The notes under the pieces were generated by a model. That model was not told the origin of the DNA and did not search any database. It saw only the letters and a list, made by a program, of their open reading frames with translations. Positions 3,236 through 53,111 of a stretch of 53,111 nt of DNA are shown in pieces (within the stretch, counting starts at the first letter, position 1; each line of letters starts with the position of its first letter). A program made the translations under genes and the position numbers. This stretch comes from an uncultured Candidatus Saccharibacteria bacterium (GTDB lineage Bacteria; Patescibacteriota; Minisyncoccia; Minisyncoccales; GWA2-38-27): NCBI GenBank assembly GCA_964479375.1, contig CAYZKD010000004.1, forward strand, positions 1 through 53,111. The letters are read 5' to 3'.

Positions 3236-3295
3236 AAAAGCCCTTTTTAAAAGAAAGGCTTTTTTATTCTTTTAAGATGTTATAGAATCTTAATA

Positions 3296-4087: not shown

Positions 4088-4148
4088 TTGACAAAACTAA
4101 TTTAGGGATTAAGATGCCGTTGTACCTTAAAAAGAAAGGAAAAAGAGA

Positions 4149-9892: not shown

Positions 9893-9921
9893 TTGTTTCT
9901 TCGTTTTTAAAGATGTATAAT
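9893..9921 (+). promoter_or_regulatory. Sigma70-like promoter of trxB (TTGTTT-17-TATAAT), 8 nt before the ATG
   Basis: Hexamers read directly. The spacing implies a leaderless or near-leaderless mRNA. Confidence 0.5.
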
Positions 9922-10851: not shown

Positions 10852-10939
10852 GGCAATTACCCTGACACCCCTGGCTTTAAGAAACCTCTCGGTTTCTTAC
10901 GTCGCTCCCGCTCCTATTTTCCAACACAGGGTAATTGCC
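10852..10939. repeat. Perfect 13-bp inverted repeat GGCAATTACCCTG / CAGGGTAATTGCC enclosing 62 nt
   Basis: Arms at 10852-10864 and 10927-10939. The right arm is part of motif R2. Confidence 0.8.
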
Positions 10940-10947
10940 ATAATTAA
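10924..10947 (+). promoter_or_regulatory. Motif R2 (ACACAGGGTAATTGCCATAATTAA), 6 nt upstream of the eno ATG
   Basis: The same 24-mer (23/24 or better) occurs upstream of pduL and pyrG. Confidence 0.6.
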
Positions 10948-10953
10948 CAAATT

Positions 10954-15771: not shown

Positions 15772-15826
15772 ATTCTCTTTATTATTTCTTCCAAAAGAGT
15801 TATAATAAGGAAAGTTAAACTTTCCT

Positions 15827-15850
15827 ACACAGGGTAATCGCCATAATTAA
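15827..15850 (+). promoter_or_regulatory. Motif R2 copy (ACACAGGGTAATCGCCATAATTAA), 9 nt upstream of the pduL ATG
   Basis: 23/24 identical to the eno copy. Confidence 0.6.
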
Positions 15851-15859
15851 GAAATAATT

Positions 15860-22696: not shown

Positions 22697-22748
22697 AAGA
22701 GCGATGTTGATTAATAATTGATTTGCATTTGCGAATTAATTTTGTAAT

Positions 22749-22967
22749 ATGAAAATTATTCAAGAACATGACAAATGTATTAGTTGCGGCGCCTGTACGA
22801 TTGCCTGCCCCTCTGGATGGGAAATAGGAGAGGGCGGCAAGGCTTACCCCAAAGGAGCAAAGTATAATTCAGAGAAAAAGGTTTATGAAAAGGAGGTTGG
22901 CGAAGCAGGCTGCAACGAGGCAGCAGCAGATAGTTGCCCGATAGATATTATTCATATAAAAGAATAA
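22749..22967 (+). CDS. Small 4Fe-4S ferredoxin
   Basis: CISCGACTIACP ... a distal Cys followed by Pro (SCP). Confidence 0.7.
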   Translation: MKIIQEHDKCISCGACTIACPSGWEIGEGGKAYPKGAKYNSEKKVYEKEVGEAGCNEAAADSCPIDIIHIKE

Positions 22968-28430: not shown

Positions 28431-28529
28431 GCTCTTTGAAAATTCTGTTAATTATTTAACAGGACATATTATAGAATTTGGTTTTTTAAAGTTGTTCTGG
28501 ATATTCCGAGATTTAATTCTCATTATTTT

Positions 28530-28560
<31 letters not shown>

Positions 28561-28833
28561 TGCGACGTGGATAAGGCATGCAAGTCGAATGTCCGTTTTG
28601 CGGACATGGCAAATGGGTTAGTAACACGTAGATACACGCCATTCGCATGGGAATAACCCCGAGAAATCGGGGCTAATACCCAATGGTCCCGTCTCTGACG
28701 GGTAAAGGCATTGAGCAATCAATGCCGGCGAGTGAGGGGTCTGCGTCCCATCAGCTTGTTGGTAGGGTAATGGCCTACCAAGGCTCTGACGGGTAGGGGG
28801 TGTGAGAGCATGATCCCCAACAATGGCACTGAG

Positions 28834-28865
<32 letters not shown>

Positions 28866-29385
28866 CGAGAATCTTCGACAATGGGCGAAAGCCTGATCGA
28901 GCGACGTCGCGTGCCCGAAGAAGCTCTTCGGAGTGTAAAGGGCTTTTCTAGAGGAAGAATCCGCCATTGGCGGATGACGGTACTCTAGGAATAAGGAGGT
29001 GCTAATCACGTGCCAGCAGCCGCGGTAATACGTGGTCTCCAAGCGTTATCCGGATTAATTGGGCGTAAAGAGTCCGTAGGCGTCTCGAAAAGTTTTTTGT
29101 TAAAGTTTCAGGGCTCAACCCTGAGAAGGCAAAGAAAACTGGCGAGATAGAGGGCGCTAGGGGCTGGGGGAACGGTCGGTGTAGGGGTGAAATCCGTTGA
29201 TATCGACCGGAACACCAAAAGCGAAGGCACCCAGCTGGGGCGACCCTGACGCTGAGGGACGAAAGCGTAGGTAGCGAAGAGGATTAGATACCCTCCTAGT
29301 CTACGCCGTAAACTATGGACACTGGCTATTTGAAGTGTCGACCCTTCAAGTGGCGAAGCTAACGCGTTAAGTGTCCCGCCTGGGA

Positions 29386-29417
<32 letters not shown>

Positions 29418-29884
29418 AGACGGGGCCTTACACAAGCGGTGGATCATGTGGCTTAATTCGACACTAAGCGAGGAACCTTACCAGGACTTGAAATTCTGCT
29501 GACATCCTGCTGAAAGGCGGGTTTCCTTCGGGACAGCAGGACAGGTGCTGCATGGTTGTCGTCAGCATGTGTCGTGAGACGCGCTCTTAAATGAGGTAAC
29601 ATGCGCAACCCTCATCCTATGTTTTAAGTGTCATAGGAAACTGCCCGGGATAACCGGGAGGAAGGTGAGGATGACGCCAAATCAGCATGGCCCTTTGACG
29701 TCCTGGGCTGCACACATGATACAATGGAACCGACAATGGGCGAAGCCGTAAGGTAGAGGTAATCCCATCAAACGGTTTCTTAGTCCGGACTGGGGTCTGC
29801 AATTCGACCCCACGAAGCTGGAATCGCTAGTAATCGCCAATCAGCCATGTGGCGATGAATATGTTTCTAAGGCTTGTACTCACC

Positions 29885-30289
29885 AAATAGATGCGCCTGG
29901 CAGATATATAGACCAGGGAGTTAAAATCTCCCTTTAATAGTCGAGGAATAGTCATTTATCGTGAGATAAGTGGCAGAGGATTCTAAGACAAATGGCAGCC
30001 CGAAGTATTTAACGAGGACCGATCCATGATTGGGTGGTGAGCATGGAGAAGGTAGCTACCATTACTCTAATTCGGGATGCCGGGAATGGCCCATATATCG
30101 ACCCAGGGAGATCTGACGTAGTATAACGAAACTAACGCTGCGTCAGAAGTCAGCTAGATCGTAGTACTTGGTATTATCAGTTAATACTGAGGAAGGATCT
30201 TCTCTAATGCTATGGCGTTAGAGCTCGCCGTATGCGGGAAATCTGCACGTACGGTGGGAACGTCACTGCTAAGTTTCTAGTAAACATTC
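29885..30289 (+). other. ORF-less 405-nt insertion in the 16S decoding-centre region, class unresolved
   Basis: Exon sequence CTTGTACTCACC | ... | GCCCGTCAC matches the conserved GTACACACCGCCCGTCAC only if 29885-30289 is removed. Confidence 0.7.
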
Positions 30290-30374
30290 GCCCGTCACGT
30301 CAAGCGAGCTGGGAATACCCGAAATCCCATCCTAGATGGGCTGAAGGTAGGCTCAGTGAGAGGGACGAAGTCGT

Positions 30375-31156
30375 TGGTGCAAACTGCACGTTGCGACCCT
30401 TGAGAGTAATTTCAAGGAAAAACTCGGCTATATGCTGGAAAAACTGAGAATTTAGGGTTACTTATGCTATAATAATAGAAAATGGAAAGTATAAGTAAAA
30501 ATACCACTAATGCAGTCAATCAGCAGGGAAGTTTTCTTGATTTTCCAGAAAACCCCTCAGAGACTACACGCCGAGCTCCTCTTTATCCAAAGGCAATCAA
30601 GGCTTATCTCCTTGGATGCTTACACGATGGGACCTATAGCTCTAATAAAAGATACCGGTTTTCCCAAAAGGGAACAAGGTGGCTTAAGGTCTTACGTAAT
30701 CTCTTTAAGAAGCTGGGTTATAATTCTTGGATATATTGTGAAAGGAAAGAGAGAGGTTTATGTTCTAGAAACGCTTGCTAAGTTTTTAGACATTTATTTC
30801 GATCCCCTGGAGTTAAGAAGTCGAGAAGAGAAAAAAGATTATATTAGGGGCTTCTTTGACGCCGAAGGCGGAATTCCTAAGGCGAAGGAAGATAGATTCT
30901 ATATCCAATTAACCCAAAGCGACAAAGAAAAGTTAAGCAAGATAAAAGATCTTCTCGTTCATTTAGGAATCGAGACAGGAAAGATCCATAATCCCAGCAA
31001 GAAGGTAGATCCTCATTACTGGAGGATTTACGTTCTGTCTGCTTCTCAGAAACGTTTTGTTAAAGAGATCGGATCTTGGCATCCGAGAAAAATAAGGACT
31101 TTGGAGAAGAGGATGGTGATATAGTCCATGCTCTATAGCGATATGGAGGTAACATG
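30375..31156 (+). mobile_element. Group I intron (782 nt) in the 16S 3' minor domain, splitting GAAGTCGT|AACAAGG
   Basis: The 5' exon ends in U and the intron ends in G. P1 forms between exon GUCGU and the intron guide GCGAC (30393-30397) with a U:G at the splice site. GATATAGTCC core motif at 31118-31127. Confidence 0.75.
30482..31124 (+). pseudogene. Double-motif LAGLIDADG homing endonuclease, frameshifted
   Basis: Motif 1 (YLLGCLHDGT) is in the frame of ORF 30482-30781. Motif 2 (IRGFFDAEGG) is in the frame of ORF 30510-31124. The frames switch near 30734-30738 (TGGATATATTGTG). Confidence 0.7.
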
Positions 31157-31323
31157 AACAAGGCACGGGTAGGGGAACCTGCTCGTGGATCATTTCAAAA
31201 AAAATTGTTTGGTTGACTGGGATTAATTTGTAAGAATTCTCAAATTAATCTCAAGGACGTTGGTCGATAGTCCACACTTTCGACCTATTCAGAACAACTT
31301 TAAGAAACCAAATTTTCAAAACT

Positions 31324-31347
31324 CCGCAGGCTTTCTGTGGTTTTTTT
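31324..31347 (+). terminator. Hairpin plus T7 downstream of 16S
   Basis: CCGCAG gctttc CTGTGG TTTTTTT. Confidence 0.6.
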
Positions 31348-31349
31348 GA

Positions 31350-31378
31350 TTGACCAGTGAACTTTTTTTTGCTAAAAT
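31350..31378 (+). promoter_or_regulatory. Promoter TTGACC-17-TAAAAT, 9 nt before the ATG at 31388
   Basis: Hexamers and spacing read directly. Confidence 0.6.
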
Positions 31379-31387
31379 TTTTAAAGT

Positions 31388-31891
31388 ATGGCAGTACCGA
31401 AAAAGATTACAAGCTTTTTGGATAAAAATAAGGTCAAGTATGGTTTAATAGAGCATAAGAAAGTTTTTACAGCTCAAGATAAGGCTGCGACTTTGAAGAT
31501 AAAGCCTGCCAAGGTGGCTAAAACCTTGGTGGTGAAGCTGGACAAGGAAGTGGTTTTGGCGGTCGTTCCGGCTCATAGGAACCTAGATAAGAATAAGTTT
31601 AAGAAGGTAGCCAGTAAATGGAGAAAAGGGCAGGATAAAAAAGCAGTAAAGAAGGTTTCCTTTGGGACAGAAAGGTGGATTAAGAATAATTTAACGGGAG
31701 CGAAGGCAGGGGTGGTTCCTCCTTTGGGGATTGTTTGGAGGTTGCCCACATTTGTTGACAATTCATTAATGAGAAATCCTAAAATTCTGATTAATTCCGG
31801 AGATTATAAAGTATCAGTTGAGATAACGCCGAATAACTTTAAAAAAGCGGTTCCGGAGATTGTAACAGGCTCTTTTAGCAAGGTAAAATAG
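31388..31891 (+). CDS. YbaK/EbsC-type aminoacyl-tRNA editing (deacylase) domain protein
   Basis: Has the overall YbaK-like pattern (FLDKNKVKYGLIEH..., VVPPLG). It lies inside the rRNA operon spacer. Confidence 0.65.
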   Translation: MAVPKKITSFLDKNKVKYGLIEHKKVFTAQDKAATLKIKPAKVAKTLVVKLDKEVVLAVVPAHRNLDKNKFKKVASKWRKGQDKKAVKKVSFGTERWIKNNLTGAKAGVVPPLGIVWRLPTFVDNSLMRNPKILINSGDYKVSVEITPNNFKKAVPEIVTGSFSKVK

Positions 31892-31896
31892 AGGAA

Positions 31897-31973
31897 GGGC
31901 GTGTAGCTCAGGCGGCAAGAGCGCGTCTCTGATAAAGACGAGGTCCCAGGTTCGAGTCCTGGCACGCCCACCA
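31897..31973 (+). tRNA. tRNA-Ile (anticodon GAT), CCA encoded
   Basis: Acceptor GGGCGTG/CACGCCC, anticodon loop CTGATAA, T-loop TTCGAGT. Confidence 0.92.
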
Positions 31974-32088
31974 GAAAAACTAGACCGGGTCTAGTTTTCA
32001 CAAAGGAGGTCGGGGAGATTGGGTATCTCCCTGTGTAGGAAATTATTCAAAACCGAGGGTTTTGAAGGAGCGAGTTTCTGCGAGCGAC

Positions 32089-32161
32089 GGGCCCGTAGTT
32101 CAGCGGCCAGAACGCCTCATTTGCAATGAGGAGGTCGTGGGTTCAATTCCCACCGGGTCCA
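32089..32161 (+). tRNA. tRNA-Ala (anticodon TGC), G3:U70 present
   Basis: Acceptor GGGCCCG/CGGGTCC, anticodon loop TTTGCAA, T-loop TTCAATT. Confidence 0.9.
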
Positions 32162-32264
32162 CTACGTTGAAGATATTAGAACCTTCTTTAAGCAGAATCC
32201 AGAGTTGGCTGGCGCAAATTTGTGTTGCTTTTGCGAATCGTCTAAAGAGCCTACATCTCATTTA

Positions 32265-33080
32265 TTATAATGGACTTTTAATATTTTTAAGATTGGGATT
32301 TGTTACTTGGGTATAGATTTGTGTCGTTCGAATGTTTTGATGGCCCAAAAGCTCTTGCACATACCTGACACTAACGCCGTTCTCTAATAAATGTGTCGCA
32401 AAGCTATGTCTTAAAGAATGGAAAGTAGCACCTTTTTTGATATTTGTCTTCCGGATCGCGTTTTCAAAAGCTTTTTGAACCGCTCTTTCTGTTAGTTTTC
32501 CGCCTCGTTCGCTTTCAAAAAAGTAGTCGCTTGGATTTTTGCCAGCGATTAAATTTTTAAGACCGGTTTTTATTTTATCCGGAAAGATAGTGATTCTTTC
32601 CTTTTTGCCTTTGGCATTCTTAAGATGGATAGTTAGTTCCTTTAAATTAACATCTTTTATTTTCAAATTGACAACCTCGCCGATCCTTAAACCGGCGCCG
32701 TAAGCCAAAGAGATTATCAATTTATGTTTTGAGTTCTTGATTACATCGATAATATTTTTGATTTCTTCTCTCGATAAAACAATTGGCAATTTTTTACTCC
32801 GTTTGGCGAATTTTAGGTTTATCTTTCGGGAAGTTTTCAATACTTCGCGGTAAAAAAACTTTATTGCGCCTAAGTAAAGGTTTACTGTTTGTGAAGAGTA
32901 ATTTTTGCGATGTTTATTTAATAAAAACTGCCCTATGTTTTCCTCGTCTATTTTTTCTAGATTAAACTTTTTAAAATCAAAATACTCTTTTAAACAGCCG
33001 AGATAAGCTTTTATAGTTTTGGAGCTATAATTCCTTAATTTTAATGCCTGTTCTGTTTGTTTTAAATATTCTTGTTTCAT
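32265..33080 (-). CDS. Tyrosine recombinase (271 aa), IntI/Xer-like but lacking the IntI-specific insertion
   Basis: N-terminal SAM-like domain (YSSKTIKAYLGCLKEYF), AYGAGLRIGEV, HSLRHSFATHLL, LLGHQNIRTTQIYTQV, and a C-terminal NIKSPL. Confidence 0.85.
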   Translation of the reverse strand: MKQEYLKQTEQALKLRNYSSKTIKAYLGCLKEYFDFKKFNLEKIDEENIGQFLLNKHRKNYSSQTVNLYLGAIKFFYREVLKTSRKINLKFAKRSKKLPIVLSREEIKNIIDVIKNSKHKLIISLAYGAGLRIGEVVNLKIKDVNLKELTIHLKNAKGKKERITIFPDKIKTGLKNLIAGKNPSDYFFESERGGKLTERAVQKAFENAIRKTNIKKGATFHSLRHSFATHLLENGVSVRYVQELLGHQNIRTTQIYTQVTNPNLKNIKSPL

Positions 33081-33136
33081 AATTTTACAAAGAATGGTAA
33101 GCTAAAACTGTTAATAATTGGTTACTAGGGCCTCTA

Positions 33137-33165
33137 TCAACAATTGTACATTGAGTTCGTATAAT
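33137..33165 (+). promoter_or_regulatory. Promoter-like TCAACA-17-TATAAT pointing into the cassette array
   Basis: Read directly. It lies between the recombinase start and the attI-like junction. Confidence 0.35.
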
Positions 33166-33219
33166 ATGCAACAAAGGACCGGCTGCTTACATTCAATTCG
33201 CATAGAAACGAGTTAAGTG
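33166..33219. other. attI-like junction: collapsed repeat (ATGCAAC-aaa-GGA...CTTACATTCAATTCG) followed by GTTAAGTG
   Basis: Resembles repeat B with its L''-L' core deleted. GTTAAGTG is the reverse complement of the R'' box of repeat A. Confidence 0.45.
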
Positions 33220-33279
33220 AAATTGCCCAAAGCCCTTACATGTGATTAAATTTATATAATATCAAATAATTTTCTTATT

Positions 33280-33972
33280 ATGATGGCAGAAAAAATTAAC
33301 AGACCTTTTGTTTTCCTTTGTACGGGAATGTCTTTAGATGGTAAACTCGCAACATCTGAAAGGAAACAAACCGAAATAGCAACCAATGATGACAAAGAAA
33401 TGATGTATGAATGCAGAATAAAAGCTGATGCAGTCATGGTTGGCGGAAGAACTTTGTTTTTGGATGATCCTGGGCTTACTGTAAAAACAAAAGAAAGACA
33501 AAACCAAAGATTGAAACTTGGCAAAACCAAAAATCCTTTCAAGGTTGCGATTGTTTCTGATGTCGCAAATTTAAAACCAACAGGGGATTTCTTTCATAGA
33601 GGAGATACAAAGAAAATAATTTTTACAACTGAAAAATCACCTGAATCAAAAATCAATGAGTTAAAATATTTTTGCGAAATTTATGTTTACGGAAAACAAA
33701 AGGTAGATTTAAAACAAGCATTATCGAAACTTTATGAATTGGGTGTGAAATCATTAATGGTTGAAGGTGGTGGAGAGTTAATTTTTTCGTTATTGAAAGA
33801 TAATTTAGTTGATGAAATCAATCTTAAAGTTGGAAATTTAATTATTGGAGGAAGAAATTCTCCAACCTTTTGTGATGGCGATGGTTTTCTGCAAGATACT
33901 GCTAAAAAAGTTAAATTGATTGATTTAATCAAAAAAGAAAATTATTTGATTCTAAAGTATAAAGTCGAATAA
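33280..33972 (+). CDS. RibD C-terminal-domain / dihydrofolate-reductase-like reductase (cassette 1)
   Basis: GMSLDGKLAT, ADAVMVGGRT and LMVEGGGEL. Confidence 0.75.
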   Translation: MMAEKINRPFVFLCTGMSLDGKLATSERKQTEIATNDDKEMMYECRIKADAVMVGGRTLFLDDPGLTVKTKERQNQRLKLGKTKNPFKVAIVSDVANLKPTGDFFHRGDTKKIIFTTEKSPESKINELKYFCEIYVYGKQKVDLKQALSKLYELGVKSLMVEGGGELIFSLLKDNLVDEINLKVGNLIIGGRNSPTFCDGDGFLQDTAKKVKLIDLIKKENYLILKYKVE

Positions 33973-34046
33973 ACGGGCTTTGGGCAACTTGCTCACTATC
34001 GTTCGCGCCTCGCTGCGCTCTCACTCCATTTCATTCCGTTCGGGTC

Positions 34047-34142
34047 ACTTAACAAGGATTATGAGAGAAATGCCTCAGCTCGGCATTTCTCCAAATTTGC
34101 TCCACTTCGTTCCGCAAACTTCTCATAATCCTAACGTTATAT
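34047..34142. repeat. attC-like palindrome A (96 nt)
   Basis: ACTTAAC-aa-GGATTATGAG ... CTCATAATCC-taac-GTTATAT, with inner hairpin AAATGCC/GGCATTT. Confidence 0.6.
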
Positions 34143-34202
34143 TCAATATTATTCTTGCCCCTTAACGATAAATTTATAATCATTCAAATTTAACTAATAC
34201 TT

Positions 34203-34718
34203 ATGACATCAAAAGCCCTTATACTTGTAGATTTCGAAAAAGAATGGACTGATAAAAATTCAGATTATTTTGTTGGAGATGTTTCCGAGTTAATCGAAAA
34301 AACCAACAAACTTATTGATTTTTGTAGAAAAAATAATTACAAAATAATCTTCACTACGCACATCGAAAAAGATTCTAATAAAGCGTTTGTTGAAAACTCC
34401 GAAAATGTGGAAATTATCGATAAAATCAATAAACAAGATTCCGATGTGCTAATAAAGAAAAATAAAATCAGTCCATTCTTTAAAACAGATTTGGATAAGC
34501 ATCTTGAAGGAATTGATGAAATTGTCATCGCTGGAATTTTGACTAATTTGTGTGTTAGAAGCTTGGCTCAAGATGCTTATGATAGAGATTTTGAAATCAA
34601 ACTTATCAAAGATTGTTGTCAGGCTTTTGACAAAGAAACTCACAATTTCACAATCAAAGATTTGAAAGCTACAAGAGAAGAAATTGAATTCTTAAATTTG
34701 AATGAGTTTATTAAATAG
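34203..34718 (+). CDS. Isochorismatase-family cysteine hydrolase (cassette 2)
   Basis: ALILVDFEKEW and IAGILTNLCVRSLAQDAYDRDF. Confidence 0.8.
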   Translation: MTSKALILVDFEKEWTDKNSDYFVGDVSELIEKTNKLIDFCRKNNYKIIFTTHIEKDSNKAFVENSENVEIIDKINKQDSDVLIKKNKISPFFKTDLDKHLEGIDEIVIAGILTNLCVRSLAQDAYDRDFEIKLIKDCCQAFDKETHNFTIKDLKATREEIEFLNLNEFIK

Positions 34719-34721
34719 AAC

Positions 34722-34880
34722 GGGGCAAAAATAATACTCTGAAATTTCCCTTCGGGACGTTGCACTAAATTTCAGCCCTTCGAGGAATGTAACAAAGGAT
34801 ATGAGGTTACGAAGTCTTGCAGACTTCTCCACCCAAATTGCTCCCTGCGGTCGCAACTTCTCATATCCCCGATGTTATAT
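34722..34880. repeat. Repeat B: outer arm, CTGAAATTT/AAATTTCAG hairpin and attC-like palindrome (34787-34880)
   Basis: ATGTAAC-aaa-GGATATGAG ... CTCATATCC-ccgat-GTTATAT. Roughly 90% identical to repeat C. Confidence 0.65.
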
Positions 34881-34955
34881 TCAATTCCGCTCCCTCTCTC
34901 AAATGCTTATGTAATTCAATGATTTTATAAAATCCTACAATCTTATATAATTATA

Positions 34956-35771
34956 ATGATGAAAATAAAAGAAATTCAAGCATCCTCAATAATCACTAAA
35001 TCAAATTTGCCCGATGCAGATTATGTCATAAATCCTTATATTGGCTGTATGCATTCTTGTTTGTATTGCTATGCAAGATTTATGAAAAGATTTACTGGGC
35101 ACACAGAAGAATGGGGCAAATTTATAGATGTAAAAGTAAATGCGCCCGATTTAATTCCTGCCAAAACTTCAAAATATAAAGGAAAATCAATTTTTCTCGC
35201 TTCTGTAACTGACGCATATTTACCTCTTGAAAGAAAATACCAACTTACTCGCAAAATTTTAGAAAAACTTATTCCTCTACAATCAAACTTAGGGGTTCAA
35301 ACAAAATCGGATTTGGTTGTGCGAGATATTGATTTGCTCAAGCAATTCAAAAATTGCGAAGTTGGTTTTACTATTACTACTTTGGATGATAATTTGCGTA
35401 AAGAAATTGGGCCATTTACTTCGTCAGTTCAAAATAGAATTAAAGCGCTCGAAAAATTGAAAGAAGCAGGAATTAAATCTTATGTCTTTATTGGTCCCAT
35501 ATTGCCATTTTTGACAGATTGGAAAAAGATAATTCTTGAAACAAAACATTGCTCTGATTTATACATGTTTGAAAATTTGAATGTTAGAGGCAATATTTGG
35601 GACTCTGTCAAAAAATGGCTCAATGAAAAACATCCAAAATTATTAGAAGATTATGAGCGCATTTACTTTTCTAAAAGTGATTATTGGGATAAAGCTGAGG
35701 AAGAAATAAAACAATTCTGCAAAGAGCAAAGGGTAGAATATAGAATTTATTTTCATCATGGAAAGAAGTAG
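34956..35771 (+). CDS. Radical SAM protein (SplB/DNA-photolyase-like family, COG1533-like) (cassette 3)
   Basis: CMHSCLYC (CxxxCxxC), about 270 aa. Confidence 0.75.
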   Translation: MMKIKEIQASSIITKSNLPDADYVINPYIGCMHSCLYCYARFMKRFTGHTEEWGKFIDVKVNAPDLIPAKTSKYKGKSIFLASVTDAYLPLERKYQLTRKILEKLIPLQSNLGVQTKSDLVVRDIDLLKQFKNCEVGFTITTLDDNLRKEIGPFTSSVQNRIKALEKLKEAGIKSYVFIGPILPFLTDWKKIILETKHCSDLYMFENLNVRGNIWDSVKKWLNEKHPKLLEDYERIYFSKSDYWDKAEEEIKQFCKEQRVEYRIYFHHGKK

Positions 35772-35773
35772 TC

Positions 35774-35933
35774 GAGGGAGGGGGCGGAACTCTGAAATTT
35801 CCCTTAGGGACGTTGCACTAAATTTCAGCCCTTCGGGGAATATAACGAGGGATATGAGGTTACGAAGTCTTGCAGACTTCTCCACCCAAATTGCCCCCTT
35901 CGGTCGCAACTTCGTTAAATTCCGATGTTGTAC
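35774..35933. repeat. Repeat C: as B, but with a decayed L' arm (attC-like part 35840-35933)
   Basis: ATATAAC-gag-GGATATGAG ... CGTTAAATTCC-gat-GTTGTAC. Confidence 0.6.
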
Positions 35934-36116
35934 GCAATTCAAAAAATATTTTTCTTAATGTAAGATAAAGATAGTCTTTCAAAGGGGAATAAATTTGATT
36001 TTTTCTAAAAAACAGAGGGGGGTAATAATGTGTTTTCTCCACTCCGTTACGAAAACAATTATTTAAAAACACAAAATTTATAAATTATGCATAATATTTA
36101 CTTTTTATAAAAAAAT

Positions 36117-37100
36117 ATGGCAACAAAGAACACAACAAGCAATAATCCAAAAATATATTTTCTTGAAGTTGAGGCAGAAGATAAAAAACTAGTGAAAGAA
36201 GAATTTCCTCAAGCAAGAATATTTAATAAAATTTTATCTGAAAAAGAGATTATTAAACAATGCAAAGAAGCAGAGGTTATTTGTCCTTTTATCTATAGCA
36301 AGATCACCCGCAAGGTTATTGAATCTTTGTCTAATTTGAAGCTTATTATTACCAGAAGCGTAGGATATGATCACATAGACTTGATGGCTGCAAAGGAAAA
36401 AGATATTGTTGTTTGTAATGTCCCTGATTATGGATCCCATGTTATAGCTGAACATGTTTTTGCCTTACTTCTTTCTGGTTTAAGGCATATTATTGAAGGC
36501 GATGAAAGAGTTGAACGAGATAAAAAATTTTATTTTTCGGGCCTAAGAGGAATAGCGCTCAAGGGAAAAAATTTAGGTATTATCGGAACCGGCAAAATTG
36601 GCAAGAATGTTGCGCGTATAGCAAGCTCTGGATTTTTAATGAATGTTTTTGCTTACGACCCCAATCTCAACAAGAATCTTGCTCTAGAAAATCATTTTTC
36701 TTATACTGATTTGAAAACTATTTGGAAGGAATCCGATGTTATTACATTACATTGCCCCCTTCTTGAGAATACAAAACATTTAATAAATAAAAAAAGTATT
36801 TCTGCCATGAAAGAGGGAGTTGTAATAGTCAACACTTCAAGGGGAGGGGTAATTGATACAGGCGCTTTAATCCAAGGCTTAAAATCTAAAAAGATTTCTT
36901 ATGCACTTTTAGATGTTTTAGAGCATGAAAATAATATTAAAGAGAATAAAGAACTTTTAGAACTCCCAAATGTGATTGTTACGCCACATATTGCTTTTTA
37001 TGCTGACGATTCTATGGGGAAGATGTATAGCGAAGCCTTTGCCACTATAAATTCATTTATACAGAAAAAGGATATAGTAAATCAAATCAAAGGAGTATAA
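36117..37100 (+). CDS. D-isomer-specific 2-hydroxyacid dehydrogenase (D-lactate dehydrogenase-like)
   Basis: GIIGTGKIGKNVA, and the NTSRGG...TPHIAFY pattern. Confidence 0.8.
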   Translation: MATKNTTSNNPKIYFLEVEAEDKKLVKEEFPQARIFNKILSEKEIIKQCKEAEVICPFIYSKITRKVIESLSNLKLIITRSVGYDHIDLMAAKEKDIVVCNVPDYGSHVIAEHVFALLLSGLRHIIEGDERVERDKKFYFSGLRGIALKGKNLGIIGTGKIGKNVARIASSGFLMNVFAYDPNLNKNLALENHFSYTDLKTIWKESDVITLHCPLLENTKHLINKKSISAMKEGVVIVNTSRGGVIDTGALIQGLKSKKISYALLDVLEHENNIKENKELLELPNVIVTPHIAFYADDSMGKMYSEAFATINSFIQKKDIVNQIKGV

Positions 37101-37320
37101 TAAAGAGTTCTGAAAAATGAAATTCATCCCTAACCCCTCTTTTATTTTTCAAATAGAAAAAGTCAAATTTATAAGAATAAAGGAAAAATTGGAAAGGCTA
37201 AAGAAGAGAAAAATCTTTCAAGCAGATACTGCCAGAAGAAGAATCTTGAGTTTTCCACAGCCCCCCTTTTTTTGTGATTTTGTTAATGATATACTTAAAT
37301 AATAATTAAAGGTCGGCTTA

Positions 37321-38022
37321 ATGCTAAACTTTATTAAAAATATGTTATTAGACTGGTACGAAATTACAATTTCAGCCCTCAAGGATCTTTATGTGGGCCT
37401 TATTGACTTTACACCCAAGTTGATAGGCGCGTTAGTGATTTTCCTGATTGGTTGGATTGTTTCCGTCGGACTGGGTAAGTTGATCGCTGAGATCTTGAGG
37501 CGCGCAAAATTTAATCGCCTTTTTGAAAGAGAAGGAATGAAATCAGCCCTGGAAAAAGCAGATTTTAAAGTTGACGCAGCAGGATTCATTGGCGCTGTAT
37601 TTAAATGGGTCTTGGTGATCGTTTTCTTGATGGTTGCAGTAGAGATACTTGGATTCCAGCAGTTTGCTGCCTTTCTGTCCGACGTTCTCTCTTACCTACC
37701 CAACGTAGTAGTGGCTGCGTTAATCTTTGTGGTGGCTGTGATTATTGCCGATCTTCTGGAAAAAGTGGTTAGGGCTGCAGTAGAAAGTACCAAGGTAGGC
37801 TATGGCCACATAACCGGAATAATCGTCAAGTGGTCCATTTGGATTTTTGCGATTCTAGCTATTCTGTTTCAATTAAGGATAGCACCGGAATTAATTCAAA
37901 CTCTGCTAACCGGTGTTGTCGGTTTAATTGTATTAGCAGGAGGTCTTGCCTTTGGACTTGGTGGAAGGGATATAGCGGCTGAGATTCTTCGCGATGTAAG
38001 AAATAAGTTCAGGGGAGAATAG
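37321..38022 (+). CDS. Polytopic membrane protein with repeated TM-helix units (mechanosensitive-channel-associated TM_helix-like)
   Basis: About six hydrophobic helices. No catalytic motif recognised. Confidence 0.5.
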   Translation: MLNFIKNMLLDWYEITISALKDLYVGLIDFTPKLIGALVIFLIGWIVSVGLGKLIAEILRRAKFNRLFEREGMKSALEKADFKVDAAGFIGAVFKWVLVIVFLMVAVEILGFQQFAAFLSDVLSYLPNVVVAALIFVVAVIIADLLEKVVRAAVESTKVGYGHITGIIVKWSIWIFAILAILFQLRIAPELIQTLLTGVVGLIVLAGGLAFGLGGRDIAAEILRDVRNKFRGE

Positions 38023-38049
38023 GAAAAAATAGATCTATCTTAGAAATTC

Positions 38050-38089
38050 AAACAGACCAAGAATCTTATTTCTTGGTCTGTTTGTTTTT
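38050..38089 (+). terminator. Rho-independent terminator
   Basis: 13-bp stem AAACAGACCAAGA/TCTTGGTCTGTTT followed by GTTTTT. Confidence 0.8.
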
Positions 38090-38352
38090 ACGGGGTAGTG
38101 AAAAGGAAACGATAATTTCAGGACAGAGGGAAATAGAAATTTCAGGGTGGAGAAGACTCACAATTAATTCAAGGCCTGACATTTCTACTTTGCTCTACCC
38201 TGACAATATCGCGTTGGGCTAACAGTACAAGACTGAGGCTTGACAGGTCTCTGTGTTTTGTTAACATAGGGAATAGTTATGAACAGGAAGAATGAATGTC
38301 AAAAAACACAAAGCGGTTAACTCCACTCTGTATTTGATAATAACCAAAGGAG

Positions 38353-38374
38353 AACCGCTTTAGAGCGGTTTTTT
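38353..38374 (+). terminator. Terminator-like hairpin with an alternative upstream partner
   Basis: AACCGCTT tag AGCGGTT TTTT. The 5' arm can also pair with AAAGCGGTT at 38310-38318. Confidence 0.45.
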
Positions 38375-40872
38375 GATAAAAAGAAAGAAGGATGTACCTT
38401 GAAAATTAAAGACAGACAATCTAGCTTATTAAAAAGCCAAACTTTCTTATCGTTTTGTAGAAGAAGTTTTTAAAAGCAGATGGTGGATGCCTTGGGATAT
38501 CGAGGCGATGAAGGACGTGGCGTGACTGCGATAATCCTCGGGAAGGTGTCATGCAACCTTTGATCCGGGGGTTTCCAAATGGGGAAACCCGTTCCGCCTC
38601 AAAGCGGAACATCTCACATTTATTGTGAGAGGCGAACCTGCTGAAGTGAAACATCTCAGTAAGCAGAGGAAAAGAGAACGAACTAGTCCGCATTTTATTT
38701 CTATTCATTTGAAGAAAAATAAAGTGTGGCGTTATTCCCTTAGTAGCGGCGAGCGAAAAGGGATCAAGCCCAAACCCTGTTTTATACAGGGGGTTGTAGG
38801 AGGATAGCGTCGGGAGTGTTCCGCAAATCATTTATTTGAAATGCGGAATCTTCACCGAGGGAGAGCACTTAGGTAGAGCAATTAGACGAAGCTTCCTGGA
38901 AAGGAGCACCACAGAAAGTGAAAGTCTTGTAGTTTAAAGTTGCTTTACGCTCCTTGCTATCTGCCGCTTTTGCGGCAACCTGAGTACCATGAGTAAAGAT
39001 AACCTTGTGGGAAACATCCCGGACTAACCGGGAAAGGCTAAATACTCGATATCACCGATAGTGAACCAGTACCGTGAGGGAAAGGTGAAAAGTAGGGGGG
39101 TAACCCCGGTGAAATAGAACCTGAAACCATCTTGCTTACAAGGACTAGGAACCCCGTTTTTACGGGGCGACTGGGTGCCTATTGAAGAATGAGCCAACGA
39201 GTCTGAGTATTTAGTTTTGTCTAAGGGGTTCTGCCCCGAAGGCACAGCGAAAGCGAGTGTTAATAGCGCGTCCTTTTACTGAATACTCAGGACCCGAAGC
39301 CAGGCGAGCTTGCCATGGCCAGGGTGAATTCCACAGAAATGTGGAAGGAGGCCCGAACCTTTAGATGCTGCAACATCTTAGGATGAGCTGTGGTAAGAAG
39401 TAAAAAGCTAATCGAGCCTGGGAATAGCTGGTTCTCCCCGAAATAGCTTTAGGGCTAGCGGCATGTATAGATTTTGGAGGTAGAGCACTGGATGGAATTA
39501 CGTGGGCTTTGCCCAGTCTTTCCAACCAAACTCCGAATGCCGAAATTTTAAGCATGTTAGTCAGACTGCGGGGGCTAAGCTCCGTGGTCGAAAGGGAAAC
39601 AGCCCAGATCCTTATCTAAGGTCCCTAAACTTTTCTCTTTATGAGGAACCTCGCTTCGGCGGGGGGACTAAGTGTACTTAAGGAAGTGAATTTCCTAAGA
39701 TAGTTAGGAGGTTAGCTTAGAAGCAGCTATCCTTTAAAAAATGCGTAACAGCTTACTAATTAAGGAGATTCGCGCTAAAGATTCACGGGACTAAGTCCAG
39801 TACCGAAGATAGGATTAAATACTCAATCCGTTGAGTATTTAAGGTAGGGGAGCGCCCTTTATTCGCTGAAGGTTCGCTGAAAGGCGGGCTGGAGAGTAAA
39901 GGGGTGAGAATGTTGGCATGAGTAACCGCAATCCCGTTGAGAACACGGGACACCGAAATCCTAAGGTTTCCTTGGCAATGGCAATCAGCCAAGGGTTAGG
40001 CGGGCCTAATTTCGTCAACCGAAAGGTGGCGAGAGATGGACAGTCGGTTAATATTCCGACCCTCCGCTGGATTTTTTCTCAAAGAGACGGAGACTTGTAT
40101 TATATGCGGATTATTGGATTTCCGTCCTTGCCCTGAGATTTCTCAAGGGGTGAGGGGCAGCCTTGCTTCGGCTTGGTGAACATATAAGAGCAGTCTTCCC
40201 AGAAAATCTTTGAGAAAGCCAAATCTAGTTGGATCCGTACCGCAAACCGACACAGGTAGGATGGCGCTAGTACGCTAAGGTGAACGAGTGAAAGCTCCTG
40301 AAGGAATTCGGCAAAACAGCAGGCGTAACTTCGGAATAAGCCTTTCCCGCCTTAAGGCGGGACGCAGCAAAAGACCCCTGGCGACTGTTTATCAAAAACA
40401 CAGGTCCCTGCCAACTCGTAAGAGGATGTATAGGGGCTGAGGCCTGACCAGTGCTGGAACGTTAAGGCCGTCGGTTTCTGCTTTTTGTAGAAGCTGAATG
40501 GTTGAAGCGCCAGTGAACGTCGGCAGTAACTATAACTGTCCAAAGGTAGCGTAATCCCTTGCCGGGTAAGTTCCGGCCCGCATGAAAGGCTTAACGACCA
40601 GGGGACTGTCTCCAGGAGCAGCTCGGTGAAAATGCAATACCGGTAAAGATGCCGGTTACCCGCGGCTAGACGGAAAGACCCCGGGAGCTTTACTGAAGCT
40701 AGACATTGGATTTTGGTGTTAGATGCGCAGTGTAGGTGGGAGATTTTGATCCCTGTTTCTCGGAACAGGGGGAGTCGCCAATGAGACACCACTCTTTTAA
40801 CGCCTCAATTCTAACCCTCCGTTTAACGGGGGAAACATTGTTTAGCGGTCAGTTTAAGTGGGGCACTTGCCT

Positions 40873-41365
40873 TAAAGATTGGCTTCCTCCAAGTCAATCA
40901 GGGGGCCTTCGCAATGTGAATTGCGAAGCAAACTTGGCTATATGCTGGAACATCCGTGGTATCCGACGCTACTTTGCTTATGGCAGAGTAAAAATGCGTT
41001 CGGTGCGGACAATCAGCAGGGAAGAAAATTAACACATAGTGATTTTCCCCTCAGAGACTATACGCCAAGCCATTAGTAAATAATGGGTGGAATGATAAAA
41101 TCAAATTAGCCAACCCTTTTTCTAATGTGATGATATAGTCCGAACTTCTGGGCGACCAGAAGCATCGCTCAAGTGATGAATGAGCGAGACCTAAAATTAT
41201 GTACTCAAAAAAGATTTCAGCGAGAAATAGTTGTTGGAACCTTGTTGAAAAGGTATTTATTGGAGAATATACGTTTTATCGGAACCGACTGAAAAATTTG
41301 CTGAAATGATAAAACCAATAATCAATCAAATACCTTCGATGAGTTATAAACTAGGGAACGAATTG
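40873..41365 (+). mobile_element. Group I intron 1 of 23S (493 nt), just 3' of the P-loop GGGGC sequence
   Basis: Joined exons give GGGGCACTTGCCT|CCTAAAAGGTAATGGAGG, the same length as the conserved GGGGCGGTCTCCT|CCTAAAGAGTAACGGAGG. The 5' exon ends in U and the intron ends in G. GATATAGTCC at 41132-41141. Confidence 0.7.
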
Positions 41366-42071: not shown

Positions 42072-42347
<276 letters not shown>

Positions 42348-42871: not shown

Positions 42872-42900
42872 TTGTTATCCCTCTTTTAAAAAGGTAAAAT
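42872..42900 (+). promoter_or_regulatory. Promoter TTGTTA-17-TAAAAT, 6-9 nt before the mreC ATGs
   Basis: Read directly. Confidence 0.5.
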
Positions 42901-53018: not shown

Positions 53019-53024
53019 AATTTC

Positions 53025-53048
53025 TTAATTATGGCAATTACCCTGTGT
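53025..53048 (-). promoter_or_regulatory. Motif R2 copy, 6 nt upstream of the pyrG ATG
   Basis: The minus strand reads ACACAGGGTAATTGCCATAATTAA, identical to the eno copy. Confidence 0.6.
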
Positions 53049-53062
53049 CAGAATAAAGAGCG

Positions 53063-53111
53063 CAGGGTTGGAACTACTCATCTCTCTGAGAAGCCAGAGA
53101 ATGGGTGATTT
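53063..53111. repeat. Short repeat R3, copy 2 (inverted, cut by the window end)
   Basis: 53073-53092 is the exact reverse complement of 9517-9536. Confidence 0.7.

Follow-up and report, generated by a model that had tools for sequence, protein, structure and literature searches.

A 16S rRNA without the CCUCC anti-Shine-Dalgarno core in a Nealsonbacteria-like parcubacterium, and its relation to start regions and the rpsU Shine-Dalgarno sequence in the class

The window analysed here is a stretch of 53,111 nucleotides, which is contig C4 of a genome (hereafter G000) of 686,684 bp in 34 contigs. The nearest uS2 relatives of this genome are named Candidatus Nealsonbacteria, Paceibacterota or Minisyncoccales, and its source, with a genome of 0.69 Mb, is a parcubacterium (Paceibacteria, CPR) resembling Candidatus Nealsonbacteria. 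Only one 16S gene is found in this 96.5%-complete, 34-contig genome, and it lies in the window. The Rfam model SSU_rRNA_bacteria matches it at 28524-29934 with 1266.9 bits; the end at 29934 was rejected as an alignment artefact of insertions, as blastn against the congener G001 shows the exon continuing from 31157. The 16S of G001 is uninterrupted, and its flanking genes share about 75% identity with those of G000. In this alignment, window positions 29884 and 30289 fall on the same G001 base, and positions 30374 and 31157 fall on adjacent G001 bases; the sequence after GTACTCACC (29884) is thus insertion, while that from 31157 onward is again 16S. The features of the locus are as follows.

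28524 to 29884, plus strand: 16S exon 1 (Rfam, boundary by blastn against G001), reaching E. coli position ~1400
29885 to 30288, plus strand: insertion 1, 404 nt, without an ORF, in the decoding-centre region of the 16S; absent from G001
30289 to 30374, plus strand: 16S exon 2, helix 44 region, ending GAAGUCGU; 97.7% identity to G001 29320-29405
30375 to 31156, plus strand: group I intron with a LAGLIDADG homing-endonuclease ORF (30510-31124); precisely absent from G001
31157 to 31197, plus strand: 16S exon 3 (AACAAGG, helix 45, GGAUCA, UUUCA), continuous with the 16S in G001; 3' end predicted from DNA
31193 to 31197, plus strand: position of the anti-SD core, UUUCA for CCUCC (sequence read and tails of relatives)
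31235 to 31300, plus strand: 3' strand of a long-range pre-16S processing stem, pairing with 28488-28535 (RNAduplex, -30.3 kcal/mol)

The first insertion displays only weak Rfam group II matches, at 30117-30198 (E 0.0057) and 30223-30285 (E 0.0062), and a similar insertion occupies the same 16S site in four relatives (L012, L014, L015 and L016). The second insertion is matched by Rfam Intron_gpI at 30363-30676 with 48.1 bits (E 2e-10), slightly below the gathering score of 50. A U closes its 5' exon, its last base is G, and its ORF is assigned to Pfam LAGLIDADG_3 (E 4e-13). It behaves as a group I intron, showing the features of that class, with the Rfam score alone lying just under the threshold. 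Beyond the 16S, the rRNA operon is split over window positions 31199-38460: the 16S is followed by a YbaK-like gene with its own promoter, tRNA-Ile, tRNA-Ala, then others, and the 23S begins at 38460. A tyrosine-recombinase-like ORF (32265-33080, minus strand) and several AT-rich cassettes lie between tRNA-Ala and the 23S, which itself holds at least two Rfam group I introns, at 40876-41162 and 42093-42339.

Exon 3 carries, in order, AACAAGG, helix 45, GGAUCA and then UUUCAAAAAAAA. Helix 45 is intact and perfect (CACGGGTAGG / GGAA / CCTGCTCGTG). The window reads TGGATCATTTCAAA at 31186-31199, with GGATCA at 31187-31192 followed by TTTCA at 31193-31197, in the position expected for CCTCC. The strand of the processing stem at 31235 bounds the possible 3' end of the 16S, and CCUCC is absent before it; the first CCTCC downstream of the tail occurs at 31718, within the tRNA_edit/YbaK-like ORF. 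The 16S of G001 ends GGATCATTTCAAAAAAA, with the same UUUCA tail, and since that gene is uninterrupted, no CCUCC is hidden by the insertions. The absence of the CCUCC core from the 16S of G000 is thereby confirmed, and DNA evidence, within its limits, excludes a hidden anti-SD. A reading of the window from its letters only (the sequence-only reading) had claimed a tail without CCUCC at 31186-31199 and no CCTCC in the next 200 nt, and had asked whether removal of a further insertion might reveal one; the tail, the three-exon structure and the tail of G001 bear out the first claim and the position of the nearest CCTCC the second, and after removal of the insertions the tail is still UUUCA.

Comparison of 16S tails shows that this is not peculiar to one genome. 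Within the same order, 17 of 17 genomes with a readable tail (about 11 families) lack CCUCC, and their tails are degenerate and differ from one another, reading UUUCA, UUUCU, UUUAA, UCUCA, CUUCA, CUCAA, CUACA, UAACA, UUAAA and AAAUU. The one GGATCACCTCCTT match in the order, in G043, was rejected as a 16S end, as no helix 45 lies ahead of it. Across the class, 79 tails could be read: CCUCC is kept in 30, nine differ from it by one mismatch (mostly UCUCC), and 40 differ by two or more, so that the tails form a series from CCUCC through UCUCC, CUUCU and UUUCU to unrelated sequences. Mixed tail states occur within each of two families (f68 and f77), which argues that decay of the anti-SD has happened repeatedly. 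On these sequences UUUCA looks like a product of C-to-U decay of CCUCC, in a tail that appears to vary freely among relatives. The loss of the anti-SD is a lineage trait and not a defect of one gene.

The loss itself has already been published for this clade, of which G000 is one more example. Tsurumaki, Saito, Tomita and Kanai (2022, RNA 28:1041, PMC9297842) described a subgroup of Parcubacteria without the anti-SD, overlapping a group without uL1; the motif was detected in only 48% of Parcubacteria, and bS21 was reported as frequently absent there. G000 belongs to the same clade and resembles this subgroup in having no CCUCCU after helix 45, in missing uL1, in its rRNA insertions, and in a short bS1 with four S1 domains. 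It differs from that report in possessing bS21. The paper gives the missing motif only; it covers neither the mRNA side nor the connection with the SD of rpsU, both described below. No uL1 was found in the 96.5%-complete G000 by Pfam PF00687 or by tblastn with an in-class uL1, and the neighbours of that gene, secE, nusG and rplK, are present (C1:51426-52575). Among 80 genomes of the class, uL1 is found in eight, and all eight keep CCUCC.

The mRNA side was analysed on 638 genes called with a simple home-made codon-usage caller, which misplaces some starts; measured from the in-frame stop upstream, the first start codon lies at a median of 12 nt, so that most starts are constrained. When GGAG, GAGG or AGGA was sought 4-10 nt upstream of starts, it was present in 12% of G000 genes; a control offset gave 8%, and the same script applied to 50 kb of E. 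coli gave 61%. The frequency of G at positions -20 to -1 in G000 is 0.06-0.20 against a background of 0.21, a depletion with no enrichment, as compared to 0.44-0.52 at -11 to -8 in the E. coli control. Duplex scans of G000 revealed no SD-type positional energy minimum upstream of genes with either the canonical or the real tail, and a motif compensating for the real tail, considered as a candidate, was not found by the scans with that tail. The claim that most native genes lack a purine-rich SD thus holds genome-wide, and the enrichment analysis that had been proposed as its check yields no SD signal in the 638 genes. Our search of the literature for leaderless or SD-poor mRNAs in CPR returned nothing specific.

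Low SD use is also recorded in CPR genomes that keep CCUCC: the 4-mer occurs in 10% of genes in G224, 8% in G050, 2% in G186, 4% in G284 (same phylum) and 27% in the GC-rich G271, as compared to 6% in G043 of the same order, the 16S tail of which could not be read. G224, which is of the same class and keeps CCUCC, had been planned as the positive control and turned out to be SD-poor itself, and E. coli was used instead. As SD use is low even where CCUCC is kept, loss of SD use preceded loss of the anti-SD. The prfB frameshift was considered as an independent signal of a working anti-SD; prfB is a single open frame in all four genomes inspected (G000, G001, G050 and G106), and is therefore uninformative on this point.

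In place of an SD, the start regions of G000 display other features. Adenine reaches 0.50-0.57 at positions -3, -4, -8 and -11 (0.57 at -3 and 0.56 at -4), T reaches 0.54 at -1, and 40-nt windows fold with a mean energy of -2.8 kcal/mol at the start, as compared to -4.8 upstream and -5.4 downstream. Spacing between same-strand genes peaks at -4 (49 pairs), -1 (13 pairs) and 0 to +5 (107 pairs), and 88% of neighbouring genes are co-directional, many of them tightly packed, which places most genes inside operons. From these statistics it would appear that ribosomes of the class already start translation without SD pairing, at sites probably marked by A-rich, G-poor and weakly folded RNA, with A at -3 and -4 and T at -1. 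Operon-internal genes, most of which lie a few bases from the upstream stop, may be served by re-initiation. Initiation guided by structure and adenines, with re-initiation within operons, would fit the start regions, by analogy with what is described for Bacteroidia.

SD-like boxes persist in about 70-76 genes of G000 (~12%), with a positional peak at 6-8 nt. At this distance AGGA/GGAG boxes, often as GAAAGGA, exceed background by about 48 genes, mainly first in their transcription units. The three ORFs at 504, 5262 and 3099 before which the sequence-only reading had noted SD-like sites do carry them; its further statement that the clear sites it found precede those three is too narrow, given the number of genes found with a box. 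An alternative worth weighing is that the tail has co-evolved into a new and weaker docking pair, in which UUUC(A) would bind GAAAGGA/GGAG boxes, partly through G-U wobble, in about a tenth of the genes. U pairs with A or with G, the AGGA/GGAG boxes peak at 6-8 nt, GAAAGGA at -20 to -3 is seen 17 times against 1.6 expected (about 10-fold enrichment), and GGAUCAUUUC is found again in six genomes of the order and in two from other parts of the class. Against this, pairing computed with the real tail reaches no energy minimum close to starts, where it is weaker than further upstream, and the tails of close relatives differ widely (UUUAA, UAACA, CUCAA, AAAUU). Moreover, a match of -8 kcal/mol or stronger to the canonical tail is as frequent among the genes of G000 (12%) as in the CCUCC-keeping G050 (10%) and G224 (14%), the boxes are shared in four and unshared in 13 orthologous pairs between G000 and G001, and box-bearing genes are GC-richer (0.438 vs 0.407, p=6e-9). 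A new docking pair is accordingly improbable; the residual boxes are read as probable imports or fossils, which would fit these observations better.

A composite motif, CYTTAA(A/C) followed after about 5 nt by AAAGGA(A/G), ends 6-8 nt before about 15 mostly first-in-unit and slightly GC-richer genes; its sites include window 4125-4148 and, elsewhere in G000, C1:53147, C7:8455, C28:4253, C16:11154, C21:4361 and C2:55171, among others. Its halves could form a small CCUU/AAGG hairpin. Three roles were weighed for the motif, namely hairpin, -35 element and 5' end of a transcript, and none was convincing.

Promoters lying close to start codons raise the question of leaderless transcripts. Four -10 hexamers had been pointed out 6-9 nt before the ATG of uppP, trxB, a ybaK-like gene and mreC; all four stand where the sequence-only reading placed them, and the genes are confirmed by Pfam.

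3283 to 3288, plus strand: TAGAAT, 7 nt before the ATG (3296) of uppP (Pfam BacA)
9916 to 9921, plus strand: TATAAT, 8 nt before the ATG (9930) of a trxB-like gene
31373 to 31378, plus strand: TAAAAT, 9 nt before the ATG (31388) of the tRNA_edit/YbaK-like gene (Pfam tRNA_edit)
42895 to 42900, plus strand: TAAAAT, 6 nt before the ATG (42907) of mreC; predicted transcription start on the A of the ATG

The promoter of the YbaK-like gene (31350-31378, plus strand) is of sigma-70 type, with TTGACC (31350-31355), a 17-nt spacer and TGcTAAAAT, and its score of 12.4 is the best in the window. The uppP hexamer has no good -35 element, and its promoter score is below the cut-off. Two of the flagged promoters, those of mreC and trxB, were compared with G001: the -10 box of mreC and its 6-nt spacing are conserved, with six differing bases in between, and the box of the trxB-like gene is not conserved at that spacing.

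Over the whole genome, TAnnnT and TAnAAT boxes are most frequent with 6 nt between the end of the box and the ATG. Of 237 first-in-unit genes, 34 (14%) have a best -35/-10 match that ends 5-9 nt from the start, with a sharp peak at 6 nt; the match ends at 10-19 nt in 13%, at 20-39 nt in 18%, at 40-79 nt in 30%, and further upstream in 20%. The promoter score is passed at 5-9 nt by 57 of 638 genes, as compared to 21 at an anchor shifted by 30 nt, a control that shows the extent to which the AT-rich composition inflates -10-like matches. ATG is the start codon in 54 of these 57 genes as compared to 81% of all genes. Judging from the spacing, the mRNAs of about 14% of transcription units would start on the AUG or no more than 3 nt from it and so be leaderless.

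Deinococcus, Mycobacterium and Streptomyces are rich in leaderless mRNAs, in which the -10 box ends 6-7 nt before the AUG and AUG is strongly preferred; they keep a normal anti-SD. The candidates of G000 resemble them in the box about 6 nt before the AUG and in the preference for ATG, and G000 differs from them in that the pattern, as deduced from sequence, covers about 14% of units and in that the anti-SD is lost. In its strong form, the sequence-only reading would have most mRNAs leaderless, replacing SD-led initiation. The sharp 6-nt peak, its recurrence in other CPR genomes and the ATG starts of 54 of the 57 candidates speak for it; it is nevertheless unlikely, as the best promoter match falls at 5-9 nt in just 14% of first-in-unit genes (at 10-79 nt in 61% and further away in 20%), the excess over the control is about 36 of 638 genes, and the predominance of co-directional, tightly packed neighbours makes most genes operon-internal. 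The claim of leaderless or near-leaderless transcripts therefore stands for a minority (34 of 237 first-in-unit genes) and falls for most units, in which the best match lies 10-160 nt upstream. Leaderless or near-leaderless transcripts are plausible, from promoter spacing, for a minority of units and not for most genes.

The weakest alternative, that the anti-SD is only seemingly missing because a CCUCC end is concealed by another intron, by a second rRNA operon or by an assembly error, has in its favour the two insertions near the 16S 3' end, the misplaced Rfam end and the fact that MAGs often miss rRNA copies, but it is close to refuted by the same tail in the uninterrupted 16S of G001, the lack of CCUCC between helix 45 and the processing-stem strand, the single 16S, the 16 other genomes of the order that also lack CCUCC, and the missing helix 45 before the G043 match.

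A possible reason for the loss involves ribosomal protein bS21. Pfam PF01165 (E<=0.001) gives no match in G000, though the gene is present: rpsU lies outside the window at C7:27030-27248 (minus strand), and by tblastn its product shares 69% identity with bS21 of G006, of the same family. The Pfam model missed 30 of 80 genomes of the class, and a profile built from 14 CPR bS21 sequences finds bS21 in 32 of 32 Pfam-negative class genomes tested. Loss of bS21 along with decay of the anti-SD, which had been considered, was ruled out by tblastn with the G006 protein and by the lineage profile; as the Pfam negatives are false, the idea of co-loss is withdrawn. The presence of bS21 in G000 although the Pfam model misses it is new here, and the reported absence of bS21 in Parcubacteria may be an artefact of profile sensitivity that deserves re-checking.

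The SD of rpsU was then compared with the tail across 60 class genomes; an SD counted as strong if its duplex energy was at least as strong as -13.8 kcal/mol, and 725 genes served as background. A strong rpsU SD is present in 25 of 29 genomes with CCUCC tails, in two of seven with one mismatch and in one of 24 with two or more, in an association that spans related, non-independent genomes. In CCUCC-keeping genomes this SD is long (AAGGAGGU, GGAGGUGAU) and lies 5-9 nt before the start, its pairing of -13.8 to -22 kcal/mol falls within the top 0.1-1.7% of the background genes, and rpsU is almost the sole gene with a strong SD. Both one-mismatch cases have UCUCC tails, with pairing kept through G-U. 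The one case with a degenerate tail (UUUAA) is a GGAGGTG 13 nt before rpsU in G008 (locus L298), of the same family as G000; this distance is too great for an ordinary SD, and the sequence resembles a relic of a lost circuit. By family, a strong rpsU SD is found in 13 of 16 with CCUCC and in 0 of 16 others (Fisher p ~2e-6, calculated by hand and overstated, since families are only partly independent); three CCUCC families (f78, f43 and f60) lack it. In G000, rpsU has no SD (-0.6 kcal/mol). That a very strong rpsU SD tracks retention of CCUCC in the class is a second new observation.

A similar arrangement is known from Bacteroidia, whose ribosomes are blind to SDs, whose rpsU (bS21) is autoregulated, and in which the anti-SD is kept and hidden under bS21, bS18 and bS6 (Jha 2021, PMC7797042; McNutt 2023, PMC9976891; NAR 2026, PMC13000453 and PMC13000457). 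These papers on bS21 in Bacteroidota do not mention CPR. Like Bacteroidia, G000 has core genes without an SD, upstream adenines and weak structure at starts, and the rpsU of its CCUCC-keeping relatives stands out with pairing of -13.8 to -22 kcal/mol, stronger than the < -13 kcal/mol used as the criterion for the autoregulatory loop in Bacteroidota (McNutt 2023, PMC9976891). Unlike Bacteroidia, in which the anti-SD is kept and hidden, G000 has lost it, along with the SD of rpsU. By this analogy, a strong rpsU SD together with CCUCC points to a signature of a Bacteroidota-like bS21 loop in an unrelated phylum, in which ribosomes without bS21 would make more bS21.

Taken together, the best explanation, to which we assign a probability of about 80%, is that the lineage has lost the anti-SD, initiates translation without SD pairing, probably uses leaderless transcripts in a minority of units, and would also have lost an rpsU circuit. 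In relatives that keep CCUCC, rpsU would be the last SD-dependent circuit, and G000, having neither an rpsU SD nor an anti-SD, may be read as the end state after that circuit was lost. More tentatively, and at somewhat less than even odds, SD-poor Parcubacteria may keep the anti-SD mainly for the rpsU loop, with repeated decay wherever the loop breaks and G000 as a natural end state.

Few bacterial RNA sequences are as strongly conserved as the anti-SD, and for this reason lineages without it show what else can select start codons. SD-independent initiation would be class-wide and partly phylum-wide, even where CCUCC is kept, and genomes that retain CCUCC tend to have one very strong SD, that of rpsU. 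If the reading of its retention through rpsU is true, the clade is a natural experiment on the reasons for the near-universal presence of the anti-SD elsewhere. For CPR genomes, neither gene finding nor the design of expression constructs should depend on SD motifs.

Two further elements were recorded directly before start codons. A conserved element of about 60 nt, ending ...TTCCAACACAGGGTAATCGCCATAATTAAAAAATT, stands directly before the ATG of about 16 genes, enolase, pduL-like and pyrG included; it lies at 10884-10953, 15790-15859 and 53019-53090 (minus strand) in the window, with about 13 more copies on other contigs of G000, and carries an ACACAGG core about 23 nt before the start (standard deviation 2.7 nt) and a CATAAT that ends 9 nt before the ATG. 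The approximately 35 nt at 22714-22748, directly before the small gene at 22749 (ATTTGCATTTGCGAATTAATTTTGTAAT), are near-identical in G001, where the flanking intergenic DNA has diverged, and may be a regulatory site.
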